From a virus (lineage: Duplodnaviria > Caudoviricetes), in IMG/VR virus record IMGVR_UViG_3300011102_000065, positions 1-43,279 of that record: DNA of 43,279 nt, one strand, 5' to 3'. The notes beneath the pieces are model-generated. The model did not search any database. It worked only from the letters and a program-made list of their open reading frames with translations, and was not told where the DNA came from. Positions 344-43,113 of the stretch are shown here, piece by piece; position 1 is the stretch's first letter, and each line of letters begins with the position of its first letter. A program made the translations under genes and the position numbers.

Positions 344-453
344 GTCATCATCTCCTGTACACATGTGATGTGTGCAGCAGGTTTCGCGGGCCGTCTGCTG
401 CACACGTGTACGGCCAATGTGGTTACATGACACGCTCCATGCGTTCTCATCAT
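340..453 (-). CDS. Possible 37-aa leader ORF (MMRTHGACH...QEMMT), ATGA-coupled to the next gene
   Basis: GAGGT RBS just after promoter P1; the stop overlaps the next ATG. Could instead be a structured non-coding leader (hairpin at 370-405). Confidence 0.3.
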   Translation of the reverse strand: MMRTHGACHVTTLAVHVCSRRPAKPAAHITCVQEMMT

Positions 454-470
454 CACCAAATTACCTCTAA

Positions 471-499
471 AGTATATCATAAGGTAGCACCTATGTCAA
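471..499 (-). promoter_or_regulatory. Sigma70 promoter P1: TTGACA-17-TATACT with extended -10 TG
   Basis: Minus strand reads TTGACA taggtgctaccttatga TATACT, upstream of the leftward early genes. Confidence 0.85.
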
Positions 500-519
500 A
501 CCCAGTACGGCATATGCCT

Positions 520-529
520 TACACGTGTG
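520..529. promoter_or_regulatory. Palindromic box (TACACGTGTG) 20 bp upstream of the P1 -35
   Basis: Same position relative to -35 as at P2, P3 and P4. Confidence 0.7.
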
Positions 530-664
530 CACAAAACTAGAAAGTAATCCCCCCGCCGTGATTTTGCGTGTGCGTGCACGAGTACGGACGTGCAGAAACA
601 CGACAAAACGAATTTTGGGTGCACGAGTAGTGAGGGGCATCGACGGCGGGCACAGGGACACATC

Positions 665-678
665 TGTACACGTGTACA
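665..678. repeat. Perfect 14-bp palindrome TGTACACGTGTACA, type copy of the genome-wide motif
   Basis: The exact 12-mer GTACACGTGTAC is also at 14047, 29006, 35961 and 38638, with many 1-2 mismatch variants. Confidence 0.9.
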
Positions 679-702
679 CACGTGCTCAGCTGGAATTTAG
701 AC

Positions 703-738
703 AAAAAAAAAGCCCCACGGCTTTGTGAGCCATGGGGC
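703..738 (-). terminator. Rho-independent terminator after gene 758-1576
   Basis: GCCCCAUGGCU-CACAA-AGCCGUGGGGC followed by U9 on the minus strand. Confidence 0.9.
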
Positions 739-757
739 AAGGTGTTGTCGGCGTATG

Positions 758-1576
758 TTAGGCTGCGGCGGAACGCTTCGCAGGCACGTTGAACGTTTCG
801 TCGATCCAAGCCTTCACGTCCGTGAAGTCGATCATGCCTCGGTCGTCTGCGAATTTCATTGCAAACACTTCGCGCAGCGTCACCTCAAGGGATTGCTCCA
901 CAGTGTCGTCAAATTCGTCGATGGGCTTGCGCTTGCCGTCCGACGCAAGGCTGGACAGCACGGCAGCCAGAGACTTCGAAGCGTCCGCAATGACGTTGGC
1001 CGCAGGGTTCTTAGCACGCTCCGGCTTGTCCTTGGACGGCTTGCCAAGACGTTCGCGAATAAGCTTATCGCCACGGCCAGCAATCTGATTGCATGAGAAT
1101 GTCTCATTGACATACTCGCCATCGTCTTCTGGATCCGGCATCTTTGCCTTGAGCGCGCCAGTGCCAATCTTGTTTGTGTTGATGCTCTTGCATCCAGCCT
1201 CTCGGAGCCAGAAGACAGACTTCAAAGCACGTTCGAACATGATACGGGCAGCGCGAGCCTTGCGGTTCAAACCTTCCAGCGTGAATGCATCGGCCGTAGT
1301 ACGTTCCTTTGCAGGCTTGTCCTTGATCGACTGCATGTGCGCCAGAACCTTGTCAAAGTCGTCGCTCACCTCGGCAAGCATGTCGTCGATGATCGCCGTC
1401 TTGTCAGCGCCGCTCTTGCTGAACACGTTGGCAATCGCAGCGCTGGAATACGTTGCTTCAGAAGCGAACATTGCCACAACAAGTTCAGCCTGCCGATTGC
1501 CTTCTGTCGTCGCGTCACGCATGACGCCAGAGATGATGTTGGCAATCGGGGAAACGTTGCGAAGGTTGTTAGTCAT
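758..1576 (-). CDS. Hypothetical protein (272 aa) in a stand-alone transcription unit
   Basis: Long ORF with GAGGA RBS, its own promoter (P2) and terminator; no motif recognised. Confidence 0.85.
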   Translation of the reverse strand: MTNNLRNVSPIANIISGVMRDATTEGNRQAELVVAMFASEATYSSAAIANVFSKSGADKTAIIDDMLAEVSDDFDKVLAHMQSIKDKPAKERTTADAFTLEGLNRKARAARIMFERALKSVFWLREAGCKSINTNKIGTGALKAKMPDPEDDGEYVNETFSCNQIAGRGDKLIRERLGKPSKDKPERAKNPAANVIADASKSLAAVLSSLASDGKRKPIDEFDDTVEQSLEVTLREVFAMKFADDRGMIDFTDVKAWIDETFNVPAKRSAAA

Positions 1577-1625
1577 GTCTCATTCCTCACAGTTCGAATG
1601 CATGGTCATCAGTGACCATGCACAA

Positions 1626-1655
1626 ACCATAACACCATATGAGAACACGTGTCAA
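1626..1655 (-). promoter_or_regulatory. Sigma70 promoter P2: TTGACA-18-TATGGT
   Basis: Minus strand reads TTGACA cgtgttctcatatggtgt TATGGT. ACACGTGT overlaps the -35, and TACATGTA lies 20 bp upstream (1676). Confidence 0.7.
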
Positions 1656-2156
1656 GTCACATTCTGCATATGCCGTACATGTATGAACATGTTCGCGAAC
1701 TGTCCTTCACGTGCCGTCACATTCGCACATGTGTGCAGCGCATTCATGCACGTGCTGGGCAGTGACTGATCGTGTCGGACAGTGACTGGCAGCTGAACAT
1801 ATGTACAGGTTTTTCCAAAGTGATGCATGTGGCGAAGGGATGCGCCACCTCCCAGTCACTTGCACGCTCGATCACGTCGTCGTCAACACGAATGCAAATC
1901 GCAACCCCCCTATCCCCCCGCAAATGCAAAAGCGCGGGTGTTGTGTATGCGCGTGCACGTGGGAGTGAGCCACGTCCTCCCACAATCCTCCCCCTCCTTT
2001 ACGACAATGCACACACGTACACGCAGCACAAACATCCGTGCACATACCAAGGTAGCTCATGCGCGTGTACTTATGTGTAGTATATGAGAGTGGTGCGAAT
2101 ACTTAGAAGTGTTGGGGAGTGGGTGGGAGAAGAGGTGTAGATAGTAGATAGAAGAT

Positions 2157-12206: not shown

Positions 12207-14552
12207 ATGGCTAGATCCCGGCTCGATAGCACGACAATTCGCGACTTCGGTGGCGGCTGGAACGTGAGTGACAGTGATCTCAACTTGAACTCACGCTACC
12301 AACCGATCAGTGACAACGTTGTGCGCGGAATTGATGGCTCATTGACTGTTCGGCACGGAATGAGCCTTCATGCCGACTTCAAAACAGGCACAGAGACTGT
12401 GCGTGAAGGATCGCACACGTTTAGTGTTGTGACCGGTAGTGCGCACGTTGATATCGTAGTGACTGGTCATGGGCTTTCCTCGGGTGATCACGTTACTGTG
12501 GTCGGTGCTGTGGCTATCGGCGGGATTCCTGCTAGCGATATCAATCGAACACATTCGGTTCTGGTGATCGACGCTGATACGCTGCGTGTGTACACACGTA
12601 CACTAGCGACGTCTACGGACTCCGCGTCGGTGGTCACGAAGCTCACGCTCGACGACCATCTGCTTGCTGGCAACATCATCCACAATCAGTACTTCAACCG
12701 CCGATTGCTCCTGTTCACGGATATCGGTGAGGTTGGCACTGCGGATGATAGCGGTAACATCGAACGCATTTGGGGCACAGCAGAAGCGGAAGCGCTAACG
12801 CCGGGGCTCGTTCCCACACGTTGGTGCGATCACTGGTCGAGTACGACATTCAAATCTACCGTGATCGCGTGCAACGGATACGACAAAGACAAGCCGATCC
12901 AAATCAAGGACGACTTCACTGTCGAATTCCTTGTGGACAAGGCGACTAACTCTAACGCGGCTGTGCCTCGTGCAGATTATGTCGTGGCGCTGCAAGGATA
13001 CGTCGTGTTCATTCGTACTGAGTACGGCGACCCGTTCGTCGAAATTAGTGCGAGGGGAACTGATGGCACGTTCACACGTGATACCAATCCCGCAGATGCT
13101 GTCGAAGTTGACTTGTCAATGATCACGGCGTCTGTGGAGCCTGTTTTGCTCGGTGCCGCACCTATTCGTGAGAAGTTGTACACAGCGTTCTATGATGCTG
13201 GCATGATCGGTGCACTCGGCATCTATGACAACAACGGCAAGCACACACCAGACTTTAGTGACACGATTTCTGAGAACGGAACCGTGTCGCATCGCACGAT
13301 GGTTCCGCTCGGTAACGACGTCTTCATGTGTGACTACGCTGGCGTGCCTTCGGTCACGATCTCGCAACAGTCTGGTATCTATGTTCCTGTGCGGCTGTCT
13401 GAGCTAATCGCTCCGGCTATTCAGGCGCACTTGAGTGCTCTGACTGCTGACACGCTACGTACGAAGGCGTTCGCTGTGTTCAATCGCAACGACCGCACGT
13501 ACATGTTGTTCCTGCCGATCTATGAGGAAGTCGCTCGTACAGCGCTTGAAGATCCGTTCATCTTCAACGACGATCTTCGTGCAAAGAACTGGGCCATCGT
13601 CCGCGCACCAGAGCATCGTCTGTTCGCGCAGTCGAACATTGTCGTCTCAGGTGCTACGGACATTGGCGATCTACCTGCGTCGAGCATCAACGGGCGTCGT
13701 CGTGTTGTCAGTGTGATCGACAAGGATACGTTCGTCATCGAGCTTGGCGGTGCTCCTACGTCAACCGACACTACGTCTGGTGGTGGGAACAGCGTTACGA
13801 TCACGCCTGTGAATGATGAGACACTTGTGTACGTGTTCGAGTACAACAAGGAATTTAAAATTCGTAGGTGGACACGTTATCGTGGATGGAACTTCGATTG
13901 CGCATGCTCGTCGCAACGTGGCAAGGTCTTCATGGCGAAGGGCCTCAAGGTCTACCGCATGGGAGACAACGAAGTTCCGTTGCACGCTGACTTCGTCAAT
14001 GACTACGACCATCGCGTGTGGAAAAACTCGACGCTGTACGAGGCCGGTACACGTGTACGAGACACTGATGGCACTGTCTACCGGGCACTTGTGACGCACA
14101 CAAGTGATGCTACAGGCACGTTCCGTGACTATCGGGATGCGCACCTAAATGATTGGGAAGTGTATCCCGGTGAGCCGATCAATTGGGAAGTCGAGACACC
14201 ATGGTCGGACATGCGCACACGTGGGCGCAACAAGATCAACAAGTATATCAGCATCGACAGCGAAGGTTATGACCGCTTCACTGTTAGTGCGTTCGTCAAC
14301 AAGATCAGGAACAAGCCGACAACGAACGAACTCATCCCATATCGATCGCTCGACTTCCAAGCAGGCGACACCGGTGGTTGGGGCATACAGAACTCAGGTA
14401 ACTGGGGTGGCGGCAGGCGCACACGCGAAGAAAAGGTGTGGCCGTTTTCTGTGCGTGGCAAGCTCATTCGCTGGCGCTATTCCGGTAGCACAACGAAGCG
14501 TGTTCGCATCATCTCGCACACAATGTACTACATGCTAGGAAACATCCGATGA
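12207..14552 (+). CDS. Tail nozzle / hub (tail tubular B- or P22 gp10-like) with inserted modules
   Basis: Starts RDFGGGWN; beta-propeller-like composition; 781 aa after the adaptor. Confidence 0.7.
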   Translation: MARSRLDSTTIRDFGGGWNVSDSDLNLNSRYQPISDNVVRGIDGSLTVRHGMSLHADFKTGTETVREGSHTFSVVTGSAHVDIVVTGHGLSSGDHVTVVGAVAIGGIPASDINRTHSVLVIDADTLRVYTRTLATSTDSASVVTKLTLDDHLLAGNIIHNQYFNRRLLLFTDIGEVGTADDSGNIERIWGTAEAEALTPGLVPTRWCDHWSSTTFKSTVIACNGYDKDKPIQIKDDFTVEFLVDKATNSNAAVPRADYVVALQGYVVFIRTEYGDPFVEISARGTDGTFTRDTNPADAVEVDLSMITASVEPVLLGAAPIREKLYTAFYDAGMIGALGIYDNNGKHTPDFSDTISENGTVSHRTMVPLGNDVFMCDYAGVPSVTISQQSGIYVPVRLSELIAPAIQAHLSALTADTLRTKAFAVFNRNDRTYMLFLPIYEEVARTALEDPFIFNDDLRAKNWAIVRAPEHRLFAQSNIVVSGATDIGDLPASSINGRRRVVSVIDKDTFVIELGGAPTSTDTTSGGGNSVTITPVNDETLVYVFEYNKEFKIRRWTRYRGWNFDCACSSQRGKVFMAKGLKVYRMGDNEVPLHADFVNDYDHRVWKNSTLYEAGTRVRDTDGTVYRALVTHTSDATGTFRDYRDAHLNDWEVYPGEPINWEVETPWSDMRTRGRNKINKYISIDSEGYDRFTVSAFVNKIRNKPTTNELIPYRSLDFQAGDTGGWGIQNSGNWGGGRRTREEKVWPFSVRGKLIRWRYSGSTTKRVRIISHTMYYMLGNIR

Positions 14553-27716: not shown

Positions 27717-27746
27717 GGTTGTGCTCCTTCACACATGTACACCCAC

Positions 27747-30272
27747 TCACGATGCGCACTCCACCTCTACCGGCTTCAACGTGCTCCAACGGATGATGCC
27801 CTTGTCATCGGGATAACCCATCTTCGTCTCAGCGGGGATGATGAGTGGGCGGATTTTTCCGTCCATCCCAAGAATGTTGATAGGTGCCTCGGCGTACTTC
27901 TTCATGATCGACAAGCACAGCTTGACCTTGTGCCTGGGTGCCAGACAAATGAGCGCATCGTGGATGTTGAGCCACATGCGAGCATCAGCGGGCCACCTCG
28001 GATCACTTTCCGACTGATAAATAACTCGCACAACGTGGTCGCCAAGGGTTGACTGCGGCTTGAACGCGACTATACTTTCCAAAGCCTCCGGCGAGAGACG
28101 TTCCAGAACGATGAACCGCCTACCGAACGCATTATAAAGGGTCTTGGTACGACGCACTTCGTCTTCCAGAGCGGCCCACCACTTTTGAAGTTCAGGAGTG
28201 ATCCGATGGTACGCCCTGTAAGCATTCGTAGCCTCCGTCAGAGAAAGGCCAGTCGTACTCGACAGACGATCCGGCTGCATCCGGTAGTTCAGCCCGTGTC
28301 GGCACCGCTTCGCGATGAACCGAAGCGTGACGTCTCGATCTCGTTTGCCTTCGGGGATCACATGTCCCTTGCTGGCATCGTAGCGGTCGAAGGTCGGAAC
28401 CTCGTCATACGGGATACCGAACATTTCGGACGCCAGCGCACGGTGAGCATCGAAACCGCCATCCGTACGGGCCTTCTCAAACTGCTCCATCCATGATTCG
28501 ATGACAGCAAACCAACCGACTAGGCGTGCTTCGGCCTGAGCCATGTCGAAGTAGCCTAGTCCATAGCCGGGGTCCGCGATGTACATCTCGTATGCGCGTT
28601 CCGGCTGGTTCTGTAGGTTCATGCCCGTCTGTTCGCCATCGGAGTTCCTCCACAGCATACCGCTCGACGAGAGGCGGCCTGGGGCGGACTGAACCCCTGT
28701 CTGGTTGTAGGTGCACCTCAGCCTCCCATCGTCGTCTATGGCGGTCGTGACATACGTGGAGTAGAACTTCTGCTCCTTCGTGTACTCGTCGAGTGCCCGC
28801 AACACCTTGCGCTTTTCTTCCGTTGTCGCAGGATGTGCGTACATACGTGCACGGTTCTCTGCGTCCGTCTGTGTGCCTCGACCGACGAGACGGAGCTTCG
28901 TGAACAGAAGCTCGCTCATCTGCTTCGGGGACTTTGGATTAGGCTCGTAGTCCTCGATGCCAGTGACTTCCTGCACGATCTTGTGGAAGTCTTCAAGAAG
29001 TTGGTGTACACGTGTACCGATTCTGTCCTTGAGTTCGTTTCGCACCTCCTGATCCACAAGCACGCCACCGACGACCATACGCAACAGGTGTGGCTGTGCT
29101 CTCATCACATGTCCAAAGAAGAATTCATCGAGCTTCTGTTGCTTGAGCTCGCTGACTACAGCAGTCGCAACTGCATGCGTATTGCAGCAGTCTTGTCCGT
29201 TGTATCGCCAGAAGCTATCGATGTCACCACCTTCTCGCCACTCATCTTTCTCGTCCTTGTAGAACGGACGAGTTGTGTACTGCGTAGTGAGGTATCCAAG
29301 ACTGTGCGGCAGCTGAGGATACAGCACATGGTGGGCAAGCATCGTGTCACACCAAATTGGTGGGACATAAATCTTGTCCTTGTACCACAACCAAGACGAG
29401 TCGAACATGTTGTTCTGCGCAACCATACGATCATGGATGCGTCTGACCATTTGTTGAAAGCGCAGTCTCAGCTTGATCTCTTGCTCAAGCGTGTATCGGT
29501 TCTCAGATAGCGTACGGAAGTTGATGCACATCGCTTCGATGTCGTTGTCAGCGAGACCGATGCACGCAGTCTCGTTGGCAATGACTTCGATATCGTACGC
29601 AACGTGACTGGACGAGTCTTCCATACGCTTCATCCAATCCATCGCGTCGTCAAACGACGGATTGATGTGCGTGCTCAAAGGCTTCTGTGACCAATTGCCG
29701 TCGAGCACCTTCTTGAGCTTAGCAAGATCAAACGTGAACGTGAGTTCGAGCTTCGGCTCACGCAGGATCATCGCAGGATTATACGTGCAAACAGTCGTAA
29801 CACGAGTACCAATTCCTTTATTGCGTTCGGAAGGCAGCAGTACACTACCCCGCCAGTTAGTAATTCCTGTGTGTCCTGTGATCGCTTCCAACGACATGTT
29901 TCCGAGGACAAGCACGTACTTGAGGTTGGGGAGTTGTGAAAGTTCCCATTGGAGCAACGACTTCCAAACCTCGAATTCGTGTTTGTTGATCGGCATTCGC
30001 TTGTCATTGCCGAAGCTCACTTGTCGTTTGGCTACGTTGGTGACGTAGACGTTGCGTCTGTCTATGCCGTACTTCCGCAACACTTCCCACAGTTTAGCAC
30101 CGCTACCTCCAACAAGAGGACGGCCTGTCTCTACCTCACGATCGCCGGGAGCCTCAGCAACGACTGCAAGCTCCGCATGAAAGGCTCCATCTGAAGCACA
30201 CTGCACCTCTAACCCTGCGGTACGTGCTTGCTTGATGAATGCTTCTTTCAATTCTGCGGTTGAGTTGATCAT
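27747..30272 (-). CDS. polA: Family A DNA polymerase with N-terminal UDG family 4-like domain and 3'-5' exonuclease
   Basis: UDG-like AEAPG..E...GRPLVG..G / YVTN; ExoI YDIE, ExoII NNMFD, ExoIII YNGQD; PGRLSS; motif A DMAQAEAR, motif B RFIAKRCRHGLNY, motif C IHDA. Confidence 0.93.
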   Translation of the reverse strand: MINSTAELKEAFIKQARTAGLEVQCASDGAFHAELAVVAEAPGDREVETGRPLVGGSGAKLWEVLRKYGIDRRNVYVTNVAKRQVSFGNDKRMPINKHEFEVWKSLLQWELSQLPNLKYVLVLGNMSLEAITGHTGITNWRGSVLLPSERNKGIGTRVTTVCTYNPAMILREPKLELTFTFDLAKLKKVLDGNWSQKPLSTHINPSFDDAMDWMKRMEDSSSHVAYDIEVIANETACIGLADNDIEAMCINFRTLSENRYTLEQEIKLRLRFQQMVRRIHDRMVAQNNMFDSSWLWYKDKIYVPPIWCDTMLAHHVLYPQLPHSLGYLTTQYTTRPFYKDEKDEWREGGDIDSFWRYNGQDCCNTHAVATAVVSELKQQKLDEFFFGHVMRAQPHLLRMVVGGVLVDQEVRNELKDRIGTRVHQLLEDFHKIVQEVTGIEDYEPNPKSPKQMSELLFTKLRLVGRGTQTDAENRARMYAHPATTEEKRKVLRALDEYTKEQKFYSTYVTTAIDDDGRLRCTYNQTGVQSAPGRLSSSGMLWRNSDGEQTGMNLQNQPERAYEMYIADPGYGLGYFDMAQAEARLVGWFAVIESWMEQFEKARTDGGFDAHRALASEMFGIPYDEVPTFDRYDASKGHVIPEGKRDRDVTLRFIAKRCRHGLNYRMQPDRLSSTTGLSLTEATNAYRAYHRITPELQKWWAALEDEVRRTKTLYNAFGRRFIVLERLSPEALESIVAFKPQSTLGDHVVRVIYQSESDPRWPADARMWLNIHDALICLAPRHKVKLCLSIMKKYAEAPINILGMDGKIRPLIIPAETKMGYPDDKGIIRWSTLKPVEVECAS

Positions 30273-30755: not shown

Positions 30756-32131
30756 TGCTTCACCCTGAAAACACTGGTTTGGATGGACTTCTGATCAGCG
30801 ATCACGAATGCTCTCTTGCGTGCACGTGTGACTGCTGTGTAGAAGTTCTGGCGAGATTGCACAAACAGTGCTGACTTGTTGAGGACGTAGCAAATCTGTT
30901 GGAATTCACTCCCCTGACACTTGTGAGTTGTGAGTGCAAACGCGAGATCGATATCGCGCATAGGAGACACATCAATCACGGTATCCTTCTGCGCCCAATA
31001 CTCTTGGTACACAAGAGGCACTTCGACAATGCGGTCTCCGAAGTCGATATCCATCCCGCCATCAGGATAGATGTGCGTGATGATGCCTGTCTCTCCGTTG
31101 AGCATCTGCTTCGTAGGAGGACATGGGATATACGACGACACAATCGGCACCATGTCCTGTGTCCATTCCTCGAACCGCTCGAAGTATGGACGCATATCAT
31201 ACGTGTTCGATGTGCAAACGACCTTGTCACCAACGCCAACAGTCAGTTCATCCTTGTCCCACTTGTGTCGCTCAAGCGGAATGGAGTGTGTAGGATTTGG
31301 GTTGAGGATCGTACGCAGCATGGCATTGAGCCGCTGTGTTCCGATCCAAGACTTCCTTGTCGGCGTGATGATTTGGTTCTCGATCTTGCCGTAGTCGATG
31401 CCACGGTCAAGCATCTCACGCACGTGCATACGCAGCACGTCAAGAGGACGATCCGAGATACGAATGTAAAAGTCTCCTTGATCCTCGTTGATAGGAGGCG
31501 TGTGACCCTTGCGGATTTTGTCTGCGGCTGCAAGCACACAGCTACCTTCGCCCTGCCTGTACACACGTTGAAGGATCACGCTGTCTGGACGCTCAATCAA
31601 CTTCTGAAACGGAGTCTTCTCAGTCTTGCCGCTGCGATCAGTGACACGATACTCTTCTATCGGAGGAAGCTGGTGAATGTCACCAAAAGCACGAATGCAA
31701 CCGCCGCTAGGAAGAGCAGCAAGGAGGTTGTTGTGTAGCTCATGATTCACCATCGCATACTCGTCAACGATGATCACGCGCTGCGTAAGAGGATTGGTCC
31801 GATCACGCTTCGGCTTCGTTACGTCGAGCGGCTTACCAGTCTTTTCATCGCGCTCACCGGGACGATTGTATTCGAGCAACTTGTGGATCGTGATTGCATC
31901 GATGCCAGTCGCTTCCTTGATACGCCTAGCAGCCTTGCCAGTCGGAGCAGCGAGTGCCACAGACACATGTCGTGCCGCAAAGAATTCGTGGATGAGCCGG
32001 ATGATGGTTGTCTTACCGGAACCTGCTGCACCACTTACTGACACGAGACGCTTCTGCAAATCACAGCACATCTCGACTGCCTTCTGCTGGTCTGCATCAA
32101 GTTCGATATCTGTGTTGATCCGAATATCCAT
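30752..32131 (-). CDS. RecD/Dda-like SF1B DNA helicase
   Basis: GAAGSGKTT, APTGKAA, IIVDE, GDIHQLPPI, VYRQ, ALTTHKCQGSEF, YTAVTRAR; start moved to ATG 32131. Confidence 0.92.
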   Translation of the reverse strand: MDIRINTDIELDADQQKAVEMCCDLQKRLVSVSGAAGSGKTTIIRLIHEFFAARHVSVALAAPTGKAARRIKEATGIDAITIHKLLEYNRPGERDEKTGKPLDVTKPKRDRTNPLTQRVIIVDEYAMVNHELHNNLLAALPSGGCIRAFGDIHQLPPIEEYRVTDRSGKTEKTPFQKLIERPDSVILQRVYRQGEGSCVLAAADKIRKGHTPPINEDQGDFYIRISDRPLDVLRMHVREMLDRGIDYGKIENQIITPTRKSWIGTQRLNAMLRTILNPNPTHSIPLERHKWDKDELTVGVGDKVVCTSNTYDMRPYFERFEEWTQDMVPIVSSYIPCPPTKQMLNGETGIITHIYPDGGMDIDFGDRIVEVPLVYQEYWAQKDTVIDVSPMRDIDLAFALTTHKCQGSEFQQICYVLNKSALFVQSRQNFYTAVTRARKRAFVIADQKSIQTSVFRVKQ

Positions 32132-32157
32132 TTTGCTCTCCGGTCTAAAACGCAAGA

Positions 32158-32195
32158 AACCCCTAGCAGCCGTCGGAAAGAAGCTGCTAGGGGTT
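32158..32195 (-). terminator. Terminator-like hairpin after the RHH gene
   Basis: 13-bp stem AACCCCTAGCAGC / GCTGCTAGGGGTT followed by UCUUGCGUUUU on the minus strand. Confidence 0.65.
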
Positions 32196-32227
32196 CTATG
32201 CGAGGGAAGTACATCAAGCCTGTGAGG

Positions 32228-32500
32228 TCACTTGCTGCGCTTCGCCTCGTATTCTTTGTGCTGTCGGAGGATGTCGAGTGCGACGTTGTATGCACACCAA
32301 GACATAAACGCAGAACGAGACATGCCTAGGAGTGACGCCGCCTCGTCAACCGCTTCCAGCACATGAGGCTGTAGGCGAATAGAACGAGTAGGCTGTTGGT
32401 CACGTGGCGAGGACGATCCACGAGGGACAACGCTCGGCATGGGACGAACGATTGTGACCGTCTCTCTCACGTGTGCGTTGAATTCGGGATCGTATGCCAC
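32228..32500 (-). CDS. Ribbon-helix-helix (CopG/Arc-like) DNA-binding protein
   Basis: TRSIRL (beta strand) QPHVLEAVDEAASLLG (helix A) MSRSAFMSW (helix B; G-x-S-R-S turn). GTG start with AGGAGG RBS. Confidence 0.75.
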   Translation of the reverse strand: MAYDPEFNAHVRETVTIVRPMPSVVPRGSSSPRDQQPTRSIRLQPHVLEAVDEAASLLGMSRSAFMSWCAYNVALDILRQHKEYEAKRSK

Positions 32501-32515: not shown

Positions 32516-32746
32516 TTACTTGACGAGGAAACGCTGATACTTGAGATCGCGGTCCGCATCGACGGCAGCAAGAACCTCCTCGGCGGAACGAGTGACGAGC
32601 GCAATGTTGAGCGTCTGGTCCTCGTTCACAGTGTACGCGATGTACGCCGGACGCGGGGCGCGCTGCTTCTCCAGACGCTCCTCATACGCGGCGAGCTCCT
32701 CAGGCGTCATATTCGAAGTGTCCTTCCGGGTCTTACGGGCAGCCAT
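32516..32746 (-). CDS. Hypothetical protein (76 aa)
   Basis: AGGAG RBS; strongly biased codons. Confidence 0.75.
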   Translation of the reverse strand: MAARKTRKDTSNMTPEELAAYEERLEKQRAPRPAYIAYTVNEDQTLNIALVTRSAEEVLAAVDADRDLKYQRFLVK

Positions 32747-32785
32747 GTCTATCTCCTATGGTTGGCTGGTTTCAGAGAGCAAGTG

Positions 32786-32825
32786 AAAAGTAGCACAGGG
32801 GTCACACTTTGGCAACCCCTATGCT
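32786..32825 (-). terminator. Terminator after the SSB-like gene
   Basis: AGCAUAGGGGU...ACCCCUGUGCU followed by ACUUUUC on the minus strand. Confidence 0.6.
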
Positions 32826-32839
32826 GTGGAAAAGTCGAA

Positions 32840-33259
32840 TTACTTGGGCTCGACCTTCTTGAAGCGCTCCCGCTCGATGCCCTCAAACTCGTCGGGCTCG
32901 ATGGTGATGATCGCGCTCTTGCCGATCCAGTCATTGACATCGAGACGAGACGACATGGCGGCACCAATGGCCTCACAGAACTTCTTCATACGGAAGCGAG
33001 CAGCCTTCGTGTCTTCGGCGCTCACGTACGCATGTACGTCCTTGCCATCCGGGAACGACTCAGCATCCTCGTAGTCAGCCGGGAAGTCCTCCGGCATGAT
33101 ACGGAACGTGACATCGACACGCTTCTTGCCGGACGACTGCGACGTGCCGACTTCCGCAGCGACGATTTTCGCAGGATAGTCGCCAGCCGGAAGAGCAACC
33201 GGAGCCTCAGCGTCAGCAATGTCGGTCGTATAGTCGAGGATGCTACCAAGTTCACTCAT
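32840..33259 (-). CDS. DUF669-like single-stranded DNA-binding protein
   Basis: LPAGDYPAKIVAAEVGTSQSSGK...KKFCEAIG...WIGKSAII OB-fold-like pattern, next to the AAA ATPase. Confidence 0.7.
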   Translation of the reverse strand: MSELGSILDYTTDIADAEAPVALPAGDYPAKIVAAEVGTSQSSGKKRVDVTFRIMPEDFPADYEDAESFPDGKDVHAYVSAEDTKAARFRMKKFCEAIGAAMSSRLDVNDWIGKSAIITIEPDEFEGIERERFKKVEPK

Positions 33260-33364
33260 GATTATCTCCTGCATGCATATGGAGTGAGGTGGCTACTTTA
33301 CACATGTACAAGGTACTACACAAGCCACTAAATGTAGTACCCTGCAACGAGATGCCCCCCATAA

Positions 33365-34186
33365 CTAGGTCGGCATATCGATCTTGTTGAAGTCTGCTGC
33401 ACGCCAACGTTCAAACCACGTGTCGATGCGCATAGACTTGTTCTTTTCGTCATCCCAATTGTCGGGATCGAACTTCCAGACGAACTCCGTCTTGTCCGTG
33501 ACCTTGAACATGCGAGACTTGGCAGGATCACGCATGCGGGACTTGCGACAGATGATGACCTTCTCGTTCTTGGACGTCTCAAACATCGGCCACACTTCAT
33601 TGATGCGCAGCGATGCCTGAGATGGAAGCTGTCCACCGAGAGACATGGTGTACCCAAGAAGAGCACCGTCATCATTCGTCTGCGGCGGTCCTTCATGGGC
33701 GATGAAGCACACGTGTTTATTCGCTTTCGCTGTGATCTGCAACACGTTGCGGATCAGATTGATTGCGAGGTTGTTACGTGCCATGTACGCACCGGGAGAC
33801 GGGCGTTCAATGGTTGCACCCTTCGTCACTTCGATACCACGAGCAAGCGTACGCTCGGTTACCGACGTAAGGCTGTCGAAGATGTACGTGTCGAAGTGAT
33901 CGAGTGTCTTCTCAATGCCGAACGGATCACGATCCTTGAGCCGAGAAAAGAACGCATCATCCTTACCAGCTAGATCGAAGACGCGCACCTCACCACTAGT
34001 GATGAGTTTCTTCGGCACAGACGCGGGACCATCAGGATCGAAGTTAATCAGCGCTTTCCTGCCTGGCATCGTGCATGCCAGCGTCGTCTTACCAAGTCCT
34101 GCTGGTGCCCAAATCAGGCATGACAAGCGCTCAACTGGTGTGTCTGCCGCTGCGACACCACCAATCATGATATCAGCGTTACTCAT
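33365..34186 (-). CDS. AAA_24 / Sak4-like ATPase (recombinase)
   Basis: Walker A APAGLGKT, Walker B YIFDSLT, FIAHE; start moved to ATG 34186. Confidence 0.8.
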   Translation of the reverse strand: MSNADIMIGGVAAADTPVERLSCLIWAPAGLGKTTLACTMPGRKALINFDPDGPASVPKKLITSGEVRVFDLAGKDDAFFSRLKDRDPFGIEKTLDHFDTYIFDSLTSVTERTLARGIEVTKGATIERPSPGAYMARNNLAINLIRNVLQITAKANKHVCFIAHEGPPQTNDDGALLGYTMSLGGQLPSQASLRINEVWPMFETSKNEKVIICRKSRMRDPAKSRMFKVTDKTEFVWKFDPDNWDDEKNKSMRIDTWFERWRAADFNKIDMPT

Positions 34187-35615: not shown

Positions 35616-35948
35616 TCACAAGAATTCCATGCCAGCCTGAAGACGAAGACCACGAAGCTCCGCAATCTGATGCTCAAGTTTCTCAAGTGCTTTGTCAGAT
35701 GCGTTGAGCGTCTTGATAATCTGTTCGCACTTCTTTTCGATCTTGGCACGGACCTTGTCTTGAGCGAGCTTATCCTTCTCAGCCTTTGTCTGCTTGTAGA
35801 TCAGGTACATGTTCATCCGACGAGTGCGGATAGCTGAGACGAGTGCGTCAAGTTCCTCGTCCGTCATCGCCTCGATGTCTTTCATCGTGATGAACTCAGG
35901 CACAGTCGGCTTTCGCTGACCTTCGAGCCTGACCACGTTGTCGGTCAT
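35616..35948 (-). CDS. Hypothetical coiled-coil protein (110 aa)
   Basis: Start MTDNVVRLEG at 35948; AGGAG RBS preceded by GTACACGTGTAC. Confidence 0.75.
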   Translation of the reverse strand: MTDNVVRLEGQRKPTVPEFITMKDIEAMTDEELDALVSAIRTRRMNMYLIYKQTKAEKDKLAQDKVRAKIEKKCEQIIKTLNASDKALEKLEHQIAELRGLRLQAGMEFL

Positions 35949-36152
35949 CCATAAGCTCCTGTACACGTGTACGGATGTTGTGTTTGGGAAGCACATGTGT
36001 GCAGCAGGAAGGAATAAGAATGATCGCACACACGGAAAGTCAGATACGTGATCACATCGGTGTATCGTGTGCAAGGGCACACGATCTATACATATGTGCA
36101 GAGCACATAAGAATATATGTATATATCTCCTTGTCCTCTTACTACTCGTAAG

Positions 36153-36181
36153 AGTATAACAACAAAACACATTGCTGTCAA
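36153..36181 (-). promoter_or_regulatory. Sigma70 promoter P3: TTGACA-17-TATACT (replication/recombination operon)
   Basis: Minus strand reads TTGACA gcaatgtgttttgttgt TATACT; box TGTACTCGTGTACA at 36200-36213. Confidence 0.88.
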
Positions 36182-36249
36182 GTCACATCTTCGTGTGTCT
36201 GTACTCGTGTACATAAGTCATGCCAAGGTGCTGCTTACAGAGGCGCACA

Positions 36250-36275
36250 CCGACCTGCACACGTGTACAGGTCGG
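36250..36275. repeat. Inverted repeat with the palindromic motif at its apex
   Basis: CCGACCTG-CACACGTGTA-CAGGTCGG; no U tract. Confidence 0.7.
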
Positions 36276-36301
36276 CGCGCTTGTGGTGTCACCTAGGCTG
36301 A

Positions 36302-36595
36302 TTAGTACGGAATCTCATCATCAATGATCGGCGTCTGCTCTTCGTCGATAGCCTTGGCCTTGTCTTCGTACGTGATCGCGGGCAGAACAGACGCAGTCTC
36401 CAACGACGTCATAATCTTCTGTCGATGACGTTCGAGCAAACCATTGGCTACGAGCTTGAGTTCATGAATTGCACGCTCATCCAACTGAATCATCGTCGAC
36501 GCACTGGTCTCGTCATCATCGACGGTGATGTAGCCAGACGGAAGGCTGTGAAAACTATACTGCGACATAGCCACTGCTCTAAGAAACGTTGCCAT
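36302..36595 (-). CDS. Hypothetical protein ending in an SSB-like acidic tip (DDEIPY)
   Basis: GGAGG RBS; the C-terminus resembles the DDDIPF interaction tail of bacterial SSB. Confidence 0.7.
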   Translation of the reverse strand: MATFLRAVAMSQYSFHSLPSGYITVDDDETSASTMIQLDERAIHELKLVANGLLERHRQKIMTSLETASVLPAITYEDKAKAIDEEQTPIIDDEIPY

Positions 36596-36619
36596 GTTAG
36601 TTCCTCCATTGTACTCGTG

Positions 36620-37561
36620 TTACGCAGCAAGCTGGAACAGCGTGTCCCGATCCTGCATGATGCGACGAACCTGCTGCTCTCGGCTGAACAAGGTTGCTGC
36701 GGTGTGATCGTTGCCAGTATTGCGTACGCCAAACTGTCCTTCGGCATGCGAAGAGTAGTATGTCATCGCAGAGAACACGGCCCACAACGTGCGACCACGT
36801 GAAGCAGCTTCGATGAGATACTGCCGATGCAGTCGCGCACCAAGTCGCTCACCGAAGCGATCTTCGAACCACTTCTGCACGTGATCGTCGTCGAGAACCT
36901 TGCGCCGTCCGAGTTCTTCGAACAGCTCACGGTTCTTCCAGAACACTTGTACGCTGCTTTCGACAGCCTGAGAGAACTTCGAGAGTTCGAGCCCCTTCGT
37001 GTGCTTGGCATACGTACTTATGTAATCACCGATCACAATACCGTTCGTGCAGAAGAAGTCGATGGCACCCGCGAGCAGCTTGATCGCACCCGTACCAAAG
37101 CCGTTCTGAATGACGATGCGAAATGCGATCTTCTCACGCTCCGGCGATGCGAATGCGATGTTCGGGAACACGTATTCACGGAAGCACATGGCACCGAAGT
37201 ACGACACCTTGTCACGAACGAGCATCGTCTTGAAGTCATCCGCATCGAGCGTCTTGAGCATCGCACCGTGGATCGTCTCAAACAGCTCGTCGTTCTGCAC
37301 GACCTTGTACGTATCACGCACAACGTTGAGCGTGACAGGTGCGCCTTCCCAAACACGTACAAGCGCCTTGTACTTCGTGTTACTATATTCCGTCCCGTCG
37401 CGGCCTTTGTAGTACAGTGGACGCTCATACGCGGTGAACGCGAGCGGGGAATGCTGTGCGAGGTGAGCGAAATCGTCGTCCCCTTGCACATGTGTGAAGC
37501 CGCGAAGTGCAGCGTTGCCAGCGGGAACAGGGTTAGATGGCGGCATTGTAATCAGCGTCAT
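36620..37561 (-). CDS. DUF932-family protein
   Basis: YKVVQNDELF...QNGFG...FFCTNGIV...KHT...RTLWAVFSAMTYYSSH pattern. Confidence 0.75.
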   Translation of the reverse strand: MTLITMPPSNPVPAGNAALRGFTHVQGDDDFAHLAQHSPLAFTAYERPLYYKGRDGTEYSNTKYKALVRVWEGAPVTLNVVRDTYKVVQNDELFETIHGAMLKTLDADDFKTMLVRDKVSYFGAMCFREYVFPNIAFASPEREKIAFRIVIQNGFGTGAIKLLAGAIDFFCTNGIVIGDYISTYAKHTKGLELSKFSQAVESSVQVFWKNRELFEELGRRKVLDDDHVQKWFEDRFGERLGARLHRQYLIEAASRGRTLWAVFSAMTYYSSHAEGQFGVRNTGNDHTAATLFSREQQVRRIMQDRDTLFQLAA

Positions 37562-37929
37562 CTTAGTTCTCCGTCTCTTCCTCGACGTAGAAGGTTTCTG
37601 AGAGTTTCGAGTTCAGCAACGGTGTAACTCATGATGAGTTCCCTCGTCGCTGTGACTACGCTTTTGTCGTTGGGAACGACGCGACTTGCGTAATCAGCAT
37701 GATCGTCGCTGATCGTCAAGCACACTCGGTTGTTGTTCAGAAGTTCGATGGTGAACGTGAAGTCAGCATCGAGGATTTCTTGTGCACGTTGGAGCAGTGC
37801 TTCATCGTACGAAGGATCGATCGTCCACGATGTTTCCTTAGCTCCGTGCGGTCGAATGTATTGCACGAAAGGAATTGCGCGGATGACCTTTCGATTGTTG
37901 AGTCCTTCAAAGGACTTGGGCTTGTTCAT
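37558..37929 (-). CDS. Hypothetical protein (123 aa)
   Basis: ATGA overlaps at both ends; start MNKPKS at 37929. Confidence 0.7.
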   Translation of the reverse strand: MNKPKSFEGLNNRKVIRAIPFVQYIRPHGAKETSWTIDPSYDEALLQRAQEILDADFTFTIELLNNNRVCLTISDDHADYASRVVPNDKSVVTATRELIMSYTVAELETLRNLLRRGRDGELR

Positions 37930-38618: not shown

Positions 38619-38654
38619 GTTGTGTAAGCGATACGCCGTACACGTGTACACAAG

Positions 38655-39693: not shown

Positions 39694-39973
39694 CGATCCA
39701 CGTCACGAACATGACGGTGTTGGACTGACGAGGACGAAACTCGTACGAGACTCTGTGGTCGTAGGTTACGCCTTTCACACCAGTCAAGCCCACGGCTGCC
39801 TTTGCTCGGCGCATAAGCTCACGCTGGTACACACGGTTAGCTTTGGCGTAGCCAGACGAGCCGTCATATCCGTAATGATCCAGTTCCGGCATGACGATAA
39901 TAGCCTGCCGAAGCCATGAGTAATTTGCTTCACCACCAAACGTGTCTGTGTATTCAACCAGATATTTCGCCAT
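39686..39973 (-). CDS. Hypothetical phage protein (95 aa)
   Basis: EYTDTFGGEANYSW motif, recalled from small phage proteins; GGAGAG RBS before ATG 39973. Confidence 0.75.
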   Translation of the reverse strand: MAKYLVEYTDTFGGEANYSWLRQAIIVMPELDHYGYDGSSGYAKANRVYQRELMRRAKAAVGLTGVKGVTYDHRVSYEFRPRQSNTVMFVTWIDD

Positions 39974-39995
39974 GGTATCACTCTCCAAGTTACAG

Positions 39996-40247
39996 TCACT
40001 CGCTTAACAGGTCAGCTATTCGAGCCTCGCATGCGACGTCTAGATATCTTTCTCCACCGTGTTTGGTCTTGATGTAAGCCGAGCCAGCATTACCGTATTG
40101 AGCGACAAAGACCCGATACCACCGACCATCGTCGAGCTTGATCATGAGGCTAGTCGGTATGCGCCAACCATATCTTGAGCGGTAGGGTTTAGCTGTCACA
40201 TACCTACGCTCGGCTCCAATAATTGCGGTCTCGTCGAGGTAAATCAT
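39996..40247 (-). CDS. Hypothetical phage protein (83 aa)
   Basis: YGWRIPTSLMIKL..RWYRVFVAQYGNAGSAYI; GGAG RBS. Confidence 0.75.
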   Translation of the reverse strand: MIYLDETAIIGAERRYVTAKPYRSRYGWRIPTSLMIKLDDGRWYRVFVAQYGNAGSAYIKTKHGGERYLDVACEARIADLLSE

Positions 40248-40279
40248 GGTGTGATCTCCATCAGTGCCTTGTACACATG

Positions 40280-40630
40280 TTATGGATCATAGCCCCGAGC
40301 CATGCGTGAACATGAGTTCATGATTGTACCACTGAAAAAGTCATTCCATATGTGATGTGGATATGCCTCGTAAAAATACGCCAGCTCGTAGTGTGTGAAC
40401 CGGCTTGTCTCACCGTACTTGTCCAGTGTCGTACCGTTCGAGATGTTGGCTCGAAGGTTCAGTTTGGTGTGGTGCTCGATGGCTTTTTCGAACAGCCCCA
40501 CGCCAAACTGCTTGTCGGCTCTTTCCTTATCTGCAAGCACGTCTTCGGGTGCTGCATCCATGGCTTCGGCCAGTGTTACAATTTTCTTGGTGGTTCCTTT
40601 GGTGCCGGTCATGGTCGTGCCGCTCGCCAT
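40280..40630 (-). CDS. Hypothetical protein (116 aa)
   Basis: AGGAGG RBS before ATG 40630. Confidence 0.65.
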   Translation of the reverse strand: MASGTTMTGTKGTTKKIVTLAEAMDAAPEDVLADKERADKQFGVGLFEKAIEHHTKLNLRANISNGTTLDKYGETSRFTHYELAYFYEAYPHHIWNDFFSGTIMNSCSRMARGYDP

Positions 40631-40632
40631 GA

Positions 40633-41010: not shown

Positions 41011-41022
41011 CGTTCGTTTCCT

Positions 41023-41244
41023 TTACTCTAGTATCTCGTCTATGGCCTGCATTGCGCCGTCGAGCCTTGCACGCTGAGTAACGCACACGCCGTCCTTAAC
41101 CACGTCCCAAACTTCTGGATGGCGATGGTAAATCAGATACCCTCGGTATTTTCTTGGGGCGCGGTCGGTGCTGTAAAACTCTGGTCCGTATTCGGGGCGA
41201 CCAGGCTTGTGCCAAGGGTTGCGGTAGGTTGTCGTGTTGGTCAT
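41023..41244 (-). CDS. Hypothetical protein (73 aa)
   Basis: Packed in the early cluster; shares its start-region sequence with the upstream gene. Confidence 0.7.
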   Translation of the reverse strand: MTNTTTYRNPWHKPGRPEYGPEFYSTDRAPRKYRGYLIYHRHPEVWDVVKDGVCVTQRARLDGAMQAIDEILE

Positions 41245-41283
41245 CGTCGGGTCTCTTTATTGTCGCTGCACTTAGCTCTTCGC

Positions 41284-41871
41284 TCAGTCGGGGATGGTCG
41301 GCTCGGTGTTGTAAGCATTTCGCAACGGCATGACCAAACCAAGTGCGTCGGCGTAGTCAGAGAATGTAACGACGGACGGTCCACCCAGCCCATTGTACGT
41401 GTGTACAAGCTCGCCAAGATCAGCAAGTTTGGCTGCTTTGCGCAAACGCACGAAGTAATCAGGATTGAATGCAGCGGGCTCGTTGGTTGGAGAGTGCGGC
41501 ACCACTACACGCCAGTTGGGGAACGGTGTGCCAATCGGTTGGAACGGTATACGTGTTCTGTCAGGCGTCGTGATTTGTAGCCAACCATCCGTCATGACAT
41601 TAAGCTCTGCCTCATCAGAACCGCGTGTTGGTGCCTTGAGTACCGTGATCTTATCAGATGGGATGGTCCAAGAACCGATCAGGTCATTGACGGCGGTGCG
41701 TCGGATGGCAATGAGCGCACTACCATCTGTTGCGACGTAGGTGGTGTGGTGACGGTCTGTCGTGACGTTCACGCCTTGCAAGTGCGGACGTGCCATCTTA
41801 GCTTTTGCGCTCTCCGCAAAAAGCACAGCAGCAGCGAGTGTACGCATGTGCAGCGTGGCGTTGTTAGTCAT
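41284..41871 (-). CDS. Truncated DNA polymerase III beta-clamp-like protein (195 aa)
   Basis: AVLFA...RPHLQGVNV...YVATDGSAL...IP...GTPFPNWRVVVP...AFNPDYF parallels DnaN motifs (R..LnGv, vATDGhRL, g.FP.y..viP, gfN..Y). Confidence 0.7.
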   Translation of the reverse strand: MTNNATLHMRTLAAAVLFAESAKAKMARPHLQGVNVTTDRHHTTYVATDGSALIAIRRTAVNDLIGSWTIPSDKITVLKAPTRGSDEAELNVMTDGWLQITTPDRTRIPFQPIGTPFPNWRVVVPHSPTNEPAAFNPDYFVRLRKAAKLADLGELVHTYNGLGGPSVVTFSDYADALGLVMPLRNAYNTEPTIPD

Positions 41872-41885
41872 CGTCGTGTCTCCAA

Positions 41886-41972
41886 TTATGCGATGACGAT
41901 CATCCAGATTACGATGGAGGAGAGGAAAGCTGCGAGCGCGACAAGCTCGCTCAGGTATTCAGCAGGACGCAT
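41886..41972 (-). CDS. 28-aa single-TM peptide MRPAEYLSELVALAAFLSSIVIWMIVIA
   Basis: GAGGT RBS; fills the intergenic gap. Confidence 0.55.
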   Translation of the reverse strand: MRPAEYLSELVALAAFLSSIVIWMIVIA

Positions 41973-41977
41973 GGTTG

Positions 41978-42166
41978 TTACCTCGGAAGAGTGCTCACAC
42001 CGCGCTTCGCGGTCATCTGAGTTGCGTCGTATGTCGAACCAGCAGCGTATCGTTCTATTGCGTGTTGCGGGCTCCTCCCAAACTCCACGCCGATCACACG
42101 GTCGTTGACGATGATCCGATAGGCTTCCATGTTCTGTTGGGCCTTGCGCTCTTCGTCGTTCATCAT
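41978..42166 (-). CDS. Hypothetical protein (62 aa)
   Basis: AGGAGG RBS; ATGA overlap. Confidence 0.65.
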   Translation of the reverse strand: MMNDEERKAQQNMEAYRIIVNDRVIGVEFGRSPQHAIERYAAGSTYDATQMTAKRGVSTLPR

Positions 42167-42396
42167 GTGTCAGCCTCCTTCACGACAAACTCGTCGTCAC
42201 ACGTGTACGCATCGTCACGAGTAACACGAGTAACTTTGCCGTTAGGCTCGATGTTGAGATAGGTGCCTTGCCACTGCGAGTAGTCTTTGGCACGCGATTT
42301 GAGAGCGATCCACACATGTACGCAACCTCCATGCAAAACAACTGCATGGAGGCGCGTTCCTAGTGGGATGCCGATGATGTCAGTTTTGCAACTCAC
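42163..42396 (-). CDS. Hypothetical protein (about 77 aa, start uncertain)
   Basis: Open frame filling the gap; GTG start assumed. Confidence 0.5.
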   Translation of the reverse strand: MSCKTDIIGIPLGTRLHAVVLHGGCVHVWIALKSRAKDYSQWQGTYLNIEPNGKVTRVTRDDAYTCDDEFVVKEADT

Positions 42397-42874
42397 TCTG
42401 GGCGATCCGAATGTGTTCGTGCATAGCTTCCGAGAAAATCGCCTTGCTGAGCTGGGCGAGCTCGTCGCATCGCATAAGCATGACGTCATTCGACAAAGAT
42501 ACGCCGAGAGCACGAGAAGTCGCGAGCAAGGACTTTTCGTCACCAGTTTCTGGTGCCTGCTTGCGTACGGTATTCACGGCGACAGTCAAATGACTTGTCA
42601 CGAACATCTGGATGCCCACCGCGAACGTGGCCGAAGCAACTATAGCATGAGCATTGTTCCGGCCTGAGTCCGAAGCCATCTTGCTCATGTACTTAGCAAT
42701 GAGCATGCGGAGGTCACACAGAAAATCCGTGATGTCGATGTCAGAATCGACTTGGTGAACGATACGCGTCAGTTCCTTGTGATGATGCGCCAGCAGGCCA
42801 GGCCAAAGAGCCTCGATATCAGAAAGGAACTTGGCAGCACGGGCGCTGTTCTCAGCTTCTTCAAGACTAAACAT
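42380..42874 (-). CDS. Hypothetical protein (164 aa)
   Basis: Start MFSLEE after GGAG RBS, which follows a motif copy at 42894-42904. Confidence 0.7.
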   Translation of the reverse strand: MFSLEEAENSARAAKFLSDIEALWPGLLAHHHKELTRIVHQVDSDIDITDFLCDLRMLIAKYMSKMASDSGRNNAHAIVASATFAVGIQMFVTSHLTVAVNTVRKQAPETGDEKSLLATSRALGVSLSNDVMLMRCDELAQLSKAIFSEAMHEHIRIAQSELQN

Positions 42875-42903
42875 CTTTCTCATCTCCAGCAGGTGTACAC
42901 GTG

Positions 42904-43113
42904 TTACGCAAGACGGATGTAGTACCAACCAGTACTACCACGAGCCAGCATCCGATCACGCAACAACGTGTCGATATCCCGAGCCCAACGCCCCTTGTTC
43001 TTGTTGATGCGCTCTTCCATGGCGTCGATTGCGGGATGCACAGGATCCTTCTGCTTGTTGTACACGCTGCGAGCATGCATGACACACGAGTGCGCAGTGC
43101 CGTGAAACTTCAT
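42904..43113 (-). CDS. Hypothetical protein (69 aa)
   Basis: Start MKFHG at 43113 with GAGG RBS. Confidence 0.6.
   Translation of the reverse strand: MKFHGTAHSCVMHARSVYNKQKDPVHPAIDAMEERINKNKGRWARDIDTLLRDRMLARGSTGWYYIRLA

Follow-up and report, generated by a model that had tools for sequence, protein, structure and literature searches.

So far, neither a reader nor a function has been assigned to the dispersed palindromes described in integrase-less phages. The published case nearest to the present one is that of the 17-bp dyad repeats of the Cluster O mycobacteriophages, Corndog and its relatives (PMC4351075). The authors of that work propose dimeric binding proteins and doubt a role in transcription because most of the repeats are situated away from promoters (PMC4351075). 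A comparable set of sites is found in the IMG/VR virus record IMGVR_UViG_3300011102_000065, the entire length of which, 43,279 nucleotides, was analysed and is referred to below as the window. The element in question is a 12-bp perfect palindrome, GTACA-YR-TGTAC.

The window is a complete uncultured phage genome. Its source record is one virus sequence of 43,279 bases with a 123-nt overlap between its ends and 54% GC, and the gene set suggests a podovirus-like virion. The rightward arm carries the genes for terminase, portal, capsid, tail fibre and lysis. The leftward arm contains numerous small genes together with those for DUF932, exonuclease, a Sak4-like protein, SSB, a ribbon-helix-helix (RHH) protein, a RecD-like helicase and a UDG-fused family A polymerase. 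The two arms diverge at about 1577-2477. No integrase, RNA polymerase, primase or recombinase was recognised among the 54 open reading frames (ORFs) with PHROGs, and neither a CI-like repressor nor an integrase was found among the 54 ORFs with PHROGs or among 30 ORFs with Pfam, many ORFs being without an assignment.

As in Cluster O, the palindromes are dispersed, of no known function, partly intergenic and partly genic in an integrase-less phage, and denser in the leftward early arm, and a dimeric protein is proposed to bind them (PMC4351075). Many palindromic copies within and between genes, conservation in relatives and no recognised integrase place them in the same kind. The differences are nevertheless considerable. 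The site here is 12 bp long with a pyrimidine-purine (YR) centre and has 15 copies within one mismatch, compared to 34 invariant 17-bp copies in Cluster O, and all four promoters found in the window carry a site at one fixed upstream position, whereas the Cluster O sites are mostly away from promoters (PMC4351075). Furthermore, the sequence changes between lineages and the gene of the candidate reader is flanked by sites. The motif itself is different, and no homologous phage was found (for terminase, capsid and polymerase, the cultured matches listed reach at most about 32% identity).

Other published systems share single properties with these sites. Cluster A stoperators are also present genome-wide, in and between genes, and possibly block transcription (PMC4351075, PMC3203893). 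However, a stoperator lacks symmetry, points in the direction of transcription and has a lysogeny repressor as its binding protein (PMC4351075, PMC3203893), whereas the site here is a perfect palindrome in a genome with no recognised integrase or known repressor, so that the stoperator analogy drawn for the motif from the sequence alone fails. Some copies abut a ribosome-binding site (RBS), as do the start-associated sequences (SAS, ESAS) of Cluster K, but SAS are asymmetric and contain the Shine-Dalgarno sequence (PMC3203893), which here is outside the palindrome, and only a minority of the copies are start-adjacent. In mycobacteriophage BPs, too, several promoters carry 12-bp palindromes, which serve as repressor operators and have degenerate half sites next to them; BPs, however, is temperate and has a defined repressor (PMC4557955), and the present sites are upstream of the -35 box.

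Enrichment of the palindrome and its position at promoters

The palindrome is a real, selected, multi-copy DNA site, and it is predicted, with high probability, to be bound as DNA by a protein. The 12-mer GTACACGTGTAC occurs in five exact copies (at 666, 14047, 29006, 35961 and 38638), as the sequence-only reading had counted. Over both strands, 10 are observed against 0.022 expected from an order-2 and 0.30 from an order-5 Markov model. Two of the five copies are within long genes, and the 12-mer did not arise in coding DNA in any of 300 synonymous-codon shuffles. Under the same shuffles, coding DNA has 8 copies of ACACGTGTAC against 0.39 expected and 11 of ACACGTGT against 2.3. Intergenic DNA constitutes 7% of the window, and the 8-, 10- and 12-mer are 8-19 times denser there than in coding DNA. 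Thus both the excess under the Markov and synonymous-codon nulls and the intergenic bias, which were among the checks named for the motif, hold. Allowing one mismatch gives 15 sites (8 intergenic), and allowing two gives 47 (20 intergenic).

The enriched core is ACA-YR-TGT. Cores with a CG centre are enriched 12-fold, those with TA 7-fold and those with CA/TG 5-fold, and the seven other centres are at 0-1.4 times expectation; since only pyrimidine-purine centres are enriched, the core needs a central pyrimidine-purine step. The register originally given for the motif, TGTAC-N4-GTACA, has to be abandoned, because this 14-mer, although found five times (665, 4215, 12589, 36200 and 41394), includes an exact 12-mer in just one case.

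A scan of the intergenic DNA for TTGAC-(16-18)-TAnnnT located four promoters in the window, all of them leftward: 499, 1655, 36181 and 38618. At each of the four, a site ends exactly 19 nt before the -35 box, with 2, 3, 1 and 0 mismatches, respectively, which positions its centre at about -60.5 if the -35 box is assumed to start at -35. The idea of a multi-site operator is supported in kind, in that the evidence points to predicted protein-bound DNA sites, but it had missed the main feature of their anatomy, the constant placement ahead of the -35 box that the four early promoters share. At three of these promoters a second, weaker palindrome (similar to GGCATATGCC; 500-518, 1656-1674 and 38619-38637) has its centre 11 bp downstream of that of the -60.5 site, and may be a tandem site.

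Between lineages the position keeps roughly to a helical phase. A relative with a gp1 protein 39% identical to that of the window (L320; gp1 is the first leftward gene) has the same type of palindrome and a degenerate copy at the same 19-nt distance. In other lineages the site centres are at -58.5, -67.5, -68.5, -70.5 (twice), -80 (twice), -82.5, -90.5, -96.5, -101.5 and -110.5. The 13 site-promoter distances from 10 lineages, the window being counted once, follow a 10-11 bp phase (maximum R 0.65, permutation p 0.011). The sites are thus centred near -61 or whole helical turns further upstream, as in the class I type of arrangement. Protein p4 of phage phi29 is a factor of this sort, which binds upstream of the -35 box in helical phase, contacts the alpha subunit of the polymerase and activates or represses. 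Like the class I sites of CRP at -61.5, from which CRP contacts the alpha subunit, the present sites would place a predicted factor in helical phase upstream of the -35 box, where it could contact alpha and either activate or repress, and such an upstream contact can indeed also repress (PMC3445967). Stabilisation of the polymerase can activate weak promoters and repress strong ones (PMC11806353). Unlike for CRP or p4, the contact with alpha is here deduced from the spacing only, and no likeness of gp1 to either protein was found in sequence or fold.

The sites do not punctuate gene boundaries genome-wide in the order stop codon, motif, RBS, as had been claimed. With two mismatches allowed, a site is found within 45 nt upstream of 6 of the 33 leftward starts and of none of the 23 rightward ones; a third mismatch raises the leftward count to 7. 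Counted by site, 1 of 15 (one mismatch) and 6 of 47 (two mismatches) are within 45 nt upstream of a start, and 9 of 60 are start-adjacent family-wide, which does not support the analogy to start-associated sequences. The variants quoted for individual junctions and the inverted repeat 36250-36275 do exist at their positions. Those said to follow a stop codon directly have the codon, but its TAA overlaps the first bases of the site rather than preceding it.

Selection on the site DNA was assessed in four close strains from four studies over 35935-36305, with the first and last 30 nt unscored and 309 nt assessed. In the five sites of this region, 1 of the 45 arm positions varies, and there all four strains have the perfect consensus; 2 of the 10 centre positions vary, both by transitions. 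Outside the sites, 26 of 254 positions vary. Between the site and the -35 box the bases vary, but the spacing is fixed, without an insertion or deletion in the four strains. The site within the polymerase gene keeps all four fourfold-degenerate positions in the relative L088, although overall just 33% of the 287 positions of this type are kept, which makes the chance probability about 0.012. The residues encoded by the site differ in the eight other relatives aligned there. The site in the late gene 12207-14552 is not kept in place: L102 has lost it and has a perfect site a short distance downstream, L101 retains one half, and the G014 variant is closer to G014's own motif.

Lineage-specific palindromes and gp1 as the candidate reader

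The family set consists of 51 records, many of them partial, including the window. An own palindrome family, called at a corrected p < 0.001, is present in 19 of these, with at least 12 different palindromes; the other 32 are without a strong family. The private palindromes include TTAATCGATTAA (G002), CAACGTACGTTG (G004), GTATA-N5-TATAC (G006), TTACA-W-TGTAA (G007), TAACACGTGTTA (G014), CCAAC-N4-GTTGG (G015), TTATACGTATAA (G017 and G019), TGACA-YR-TGTCA (G024) and TATAC-N3-GTATA (G055-G057 and G062). The TATATA-N-TATATA of G016 passes the threshold and is counted within the 19, but is of low complexity and doubtful. Because some records are near-duplicates (G017/G019; G056/G062/G069), the counts are not independent. 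A matrix of 10 motifs against 25 records is close to diagonal. Away from the diagonal the counts are 0 or 1, apart from those for pairs of records with a common motif; the diagonal itself is circular, as the motifs were picked per genome. The palindromes shift in small steps along the tree of structural genes. That relatives carry different palindromes, together with the constant distance of the sites from the four early promoters of the window, makes it likely that the sites are docking points for a phage DNA-binding regulator.

Three records without the family capsid gene, G028, G029 and G033 (L226-L231, L240), were left out of the family counts. They are DUF932-bearing phages of another family and have private intergenic palindromes of their own (GGTCCG-N4-CGGACC, GTAACG-N-CGTTAC and AGCT-N7-AGCT). 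In G007 (L218-L220) neighbouring sites are about 2 kb apart along the early arm and about 9-10 kb apart along the late one; five of its sites stand immediately before an RBS.

The candidate reader, gp1, has its own predicted promoter and terminator. Its family is divergent, with lengths of 260-400 aa; two subgroups are linked at E 2e-8 and a third weakly (E 1e-3). It was detected in 14 of the 19 palindrome-rich records; the region is missing in four, and in the remaining record its place is taken by a 364-aa gene without a match. With a correction for intergenic room, 11 of 13 genomes have a site in the 300 nt upstream of gp1 (4.7 expected), and 9 of 13 have sites on both sides of the gene (1.8 expected); other genes are flanked in this way in 7 of 443 cases. 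The protein model is confident (pLDDT 92) and comprises an N-terminal helical part, a long helix (residues 94-126), three strands, a helix (162-177), a linker and a C-terminal helical domain. The best VIA-align match has a Z of 7.3 for the whole protein, to a generic helical hairpin, and of 4.0 for the domain. The leads from the ESM Atlas, DUF3102 (0.80), Streptomyces phage repressor c (0.79) and TrcR (0.75), were all under the Atlas threshold and were rejected. The gp1 of G015 (L183:5920-7128) has an extra N-terminal part with a weak match to DnaJ (E 0.0025, below the cut-off).

The reading put first here, at about even chances, is that the palindromes are predicted double-stranded DNA sites of a dimeric phage-encoded regulator, probably gp1, which at each early promoter would act from about -60.5 on the sigma70 RNA polymerase of the host. 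The host polymerase would first transcribe gp1 from its own promoter. The gp1 protein would then bind the sites upstream of the early promoters, including its own, on the side of the helix that faces the polymerase, where it could touch the C-terminal domain of the alpha subunit. Since the early promoters come close to the consensus as they are, it is slightly more probable that early transcription would be damped or shut off, by holding the polymerase, than that it would be activated. Sites in leaders and within genes would add roadblocks or looping points. As the specificity of the reader drifts, the sites of each lineage would drift along with it.

Several observations weigh against this proposal. 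Support from the strain comparison is modest (binomial p 0.048, Fisher p 0.095), and the promoters were recognised only by their match to the consensus. In relatives, numerous promoters are without a site in the nearest 75 nt, and the scan recognised no promoter in G055-G057, the palindromes of which are strong. The four promoter regions of the window resemble one another, so that their shared 19-nt spacing may be partly inherited by duplication. The gp1 of the window is slightly acidic (isoelectric point 5.7), and no known DNA-binding domain or named fold was found in it with Foldseek (PDB and BFVD), VIA-align, a PDB sequence profile or Pfam. Fourteen of the 28 gp1-positive records have no strong palindrome family. 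The low-GC clade has neither gp1 nor a palindrome family, but this joint loss is confined to one clade and amounts to one event only. Motif similarity tracks the gp1 tree and the structural-gene tree alike and thus does not single out gp1. The strongest link to gp1 is its position, which could also reflect the control region as a whole.

If gp1 does read the sites, its family would be new among the proteins that bind DNA sequence-specifically, and its members would form a set of naturally orthogonal regulators. The phage family offers a testable case, in that the promoter geometry is fixed, a protein without a recognised fold has been named as the candidate, and nature provides at least 12 pairs of protein and site with different sequences. 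The proposal, if true, would show how a widespread uncultured phage family times early transcription without an RNA polymerase of its own.

A more specific version of the gp1 proposal, very unlikely as it stands, is suggested by the model. Among the best 36 matches listed for residues 90-185, nine are chains of basic helix-loop-helix (bHLH) proteins, with Z of 3.0-3.6 and root-mean-square deviations of 3.2-5.0 over 51-64 residues, all under the threshold. The core of the site is CANNTG, which together with these sub-threshold matches is a lead and not a result; no HLH family is among the 25 Pfam families listed for gp1. The protein might then be a helix-(beta insert)-helix dimer that reads an E-box-like CANNTG as eukaryotic bHLH factors do, controls a bacterial RNA polymerase from -60.5 and has its specificity retuned in each lineage. 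If true, a class of factors familiar from eukaryotes would have its counterpart in a bacterial virus.

Alternative explanations

The sites may instead be bound by a phage protein that handles the genome during DNA entry, compaction, the start of replication or packaging, in which case their clustering around gp1 would mark the genome end and not transcription control. This is unlikely. The sites cluster in the divergent control region, which, judging from gene orientation, is the probable place of the genome termini. They are also found within late genes; in G007 they recur at intervals of about 2 kb along the early arm and of about 9 kb along the late one; and a primase is missing from the recognised proteins. 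Genome handling leaves unexplained, however, why four promoters, separated on the circular map by as much as 5.2 kb, share the exact 19-nt spacing to the -35 box, and why the sites of relatives are in helical phase.

Another phage protein could be the reader instead of gp1, either the RHH protein (32228-32500) or the adjoining small basic protein (32516-32746); the probability of this is low. RHH dimers bind short palindromes. The protein here is the sole recognisable transcription factor of the genome and is widespread in the family, and the small basic protein adjoins the SSB gene in most of the genomes clustered. However, the RHH gene was not detected, its usual slot included, in six palindrome-rich records (G006, G007, G017, G019, G057 and G062), and nine low-GC records have the gene but no palindromes. 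Moreover, the RHH recognition strand is not the same in G014 and G022, two records with a common palindrome. The RHH protein was rejected as a general reader because its presence and absence do not match those of the palindromes. The small basic protein also occurs where palindromes are absent.

A comparably low probability is given to the recruitment of a host transcription factor, for example one of the CRP/FNR type, with sites that differ because the relatives infect different hosts. The position at -60.5 matches the class I position of CRP (PMC3445967), and half of the gp1-positive records are without strong palindromes. Nevertheless, at least 12 palindromes of 11-15 bp that change stepwise along the phage tree are better explained by a phage-encoded reader that drifts than by a small number of host motifs that stay fixed. 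In addition, six of the 12-mers were not found in the searched literature on phages and bacterial regulation.

A further possibility is that the palindromes act as RNA hairpins that control translation or processing beside RBSs. As a general role this is highly improbable, since it fits one site only, 36250-36275, and most isolated sites fold weakly. The repeat at that site does behave as an RNA hairpin, in that two arm changes in the strains are both G-U-compatible on the transcribed strand, and sites 357 and 400 can pair with each other. Furthermore, across 10 genomes, a start codon follows at a distance of 8-17 nt from the end of 9 of 60 intergenic sites (3.7 expected, p 0.007). The other 51 are not RBS-adjacent, however, isolated junction sites fold with only -0.6 to -8.9 kcal/mol, the promoter-upstream sites fall outside the transcripts of their promoters, and sites 519 and 666 come after the gp1 terminator. 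The RBS-abutting excess is left partly unexplained; a roadblock at the gene start would fit.

Apart from these arguments, the region 35949-36146 is a structured leader of about 200 nt with three sites and no Rfam match, in which no variant is listed between 36077 and 36158 in the four strains. Long, perfect or near-perfect intergenic hairpins with stems of 14-19 bp are located in the replication arm (32130-32230, 32745-32840, 33255-33365 and 36215-36305), and are possibly terminators or RNase III sites.

It is scarcely credible that the sites are recombination points for shuffling small early genes. Recombination between repeats of this sort was reported for Cluster O phages (PMC4351075), and the gene-loss joint 39973-40261 ends 10 nt from site 40271. 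None of the three gene-loss events in close strains (37541/37570-37926/37936, 39973-40261 and 41957-42162), a small sample, runs between two sites, however, so that the breakpoints do not support the original suggestion, and no recombinase was recognised in the genome. Among the small early genes, 37558-37929 is missing in four of four close-strain runs and 39996-40247 in one of four.

A by-product of purine-pyrimidine alternation bias or restriction-site avoidance is equally hard to believe and largely refuted, because, although alternating runs of at least 14 nt are in excess in coding DNA (17 against 5.8) and 10 of 64 six-base palindromes are absent, bias cannot give a fixed promoter spacing or conservation at saturated silent sites, and palindromes of relatives such as TTAATCGATTAA and TTACATTGTAA do not alternate.

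Catalogue of sites and genome context

The sites discussed above and their neighbouring features are listed in Table 1.

Table 1. Sites, predicted promoters and associated genes of the window, with mismatches counted against the 12-bp palindrome
Feature	Position	Strand	Remark
Two sites: 357 (2 mismatches, abuts RBS), 400 (1 mismatch)	357..411	.	leader downstream of P499
Predicted promoter P499	471..499	-	TTGACA-17-TATACT
Site, 2 mismatches	519..530	.	19 nt upstream of P499
Exact palindrome 666 and overlapping variant 674	666..685	.	immediately downstream of gp1 terminator
Predicted intrinsic terminator after gp1	703..738	-	hairpin and T run
gp1, first early gene, 272 aa	758..1576	-	confident model, no recognised fold; candidate (putative) site reader
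Predicted gp1 promoter P1655	1626..1655	-	TTGACA-18-TATGGT
Degenerate site, 3 mismatches, one half intact	1675..1686	.	19 nt upstream of P1655; more sites at 1725, 1795
Exact palindrome	14047..14058	.	within late gene 12207-14552, codons G-T-R-V
Junction site, 2 mismatches	27729..27740	.	before ORF 27141-27716
Exact palindrome	29006..29017	.	within DNA polymerase gene; 4/4 fourfold-degenerate positions kept in L088
AtaR/TacA-like ribbon-helix-helix protein	32228..32500	-	weighed as reader, judged less likely
Intergenic site, 1 mismatch	33298..33309	.	upstream of SSB-like gene
Exact palindrome	35961..35972	.	abuts RBS of ORF 35616-35948; weaker sites 35991, 36088 in same leader
Predicted promoter P36181	36153..36181	-	TTGACA-17-TATACT
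Site, 1 mismatch	36201..36212	.	19 nt upstream of P36181; only two central bases change in close strains
Site, 1 mismatch	36257..36268	.	tip of longer hairpin 36240-36285; perfect consensus in 4/4 close strains
Junction variant, 3 mismatches	36611..36622	.	overlaps stop codon of DUF932 gene
Predicted sigma70-type promoter P38618	38590..38618	-	TTGACC-17-TATACT, consensus match only
Exact palindrome	38638..38649	.	ends 19 nt upstream of -35 box of P38618
Junction site, 2 mismatches	40271..40282	.	overlaps stop codon
Junction site, 2 mismatches	42895..42906	.	overlaps stop codon

A related capsid protein is encoded by 530 IMG/VR stretches. In tblastn searches of 50,697 phage records with the terminase, capsid and polymerase, the matches listed to cultured phages had only about 22-32% identity. 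Literature searches found neither the phage family nor the motifs described, most subscription papers being outside the searched literature. A 26-kb contig of the family, L361, was binned with a genome titled uncultured Thioalkalispiraceae; it is probably a co-binned phage, and the association is too weak to name a host.

The window has no tRNA and no Rfam family. Its UDG-fused family A polymerase and RecD-like helicase (27747-32131) stand without a recognised primase. Many relatives have an extra gene of 370-425 aa after the polymerase, which is absent from the window. Six-base palindromes are strongly avoided genome-wide, as is CC/GG (ratio 0.67), in a manner that resembles restriction avoidance; CACGTG and TGTACA are enriched despite this avoidance.

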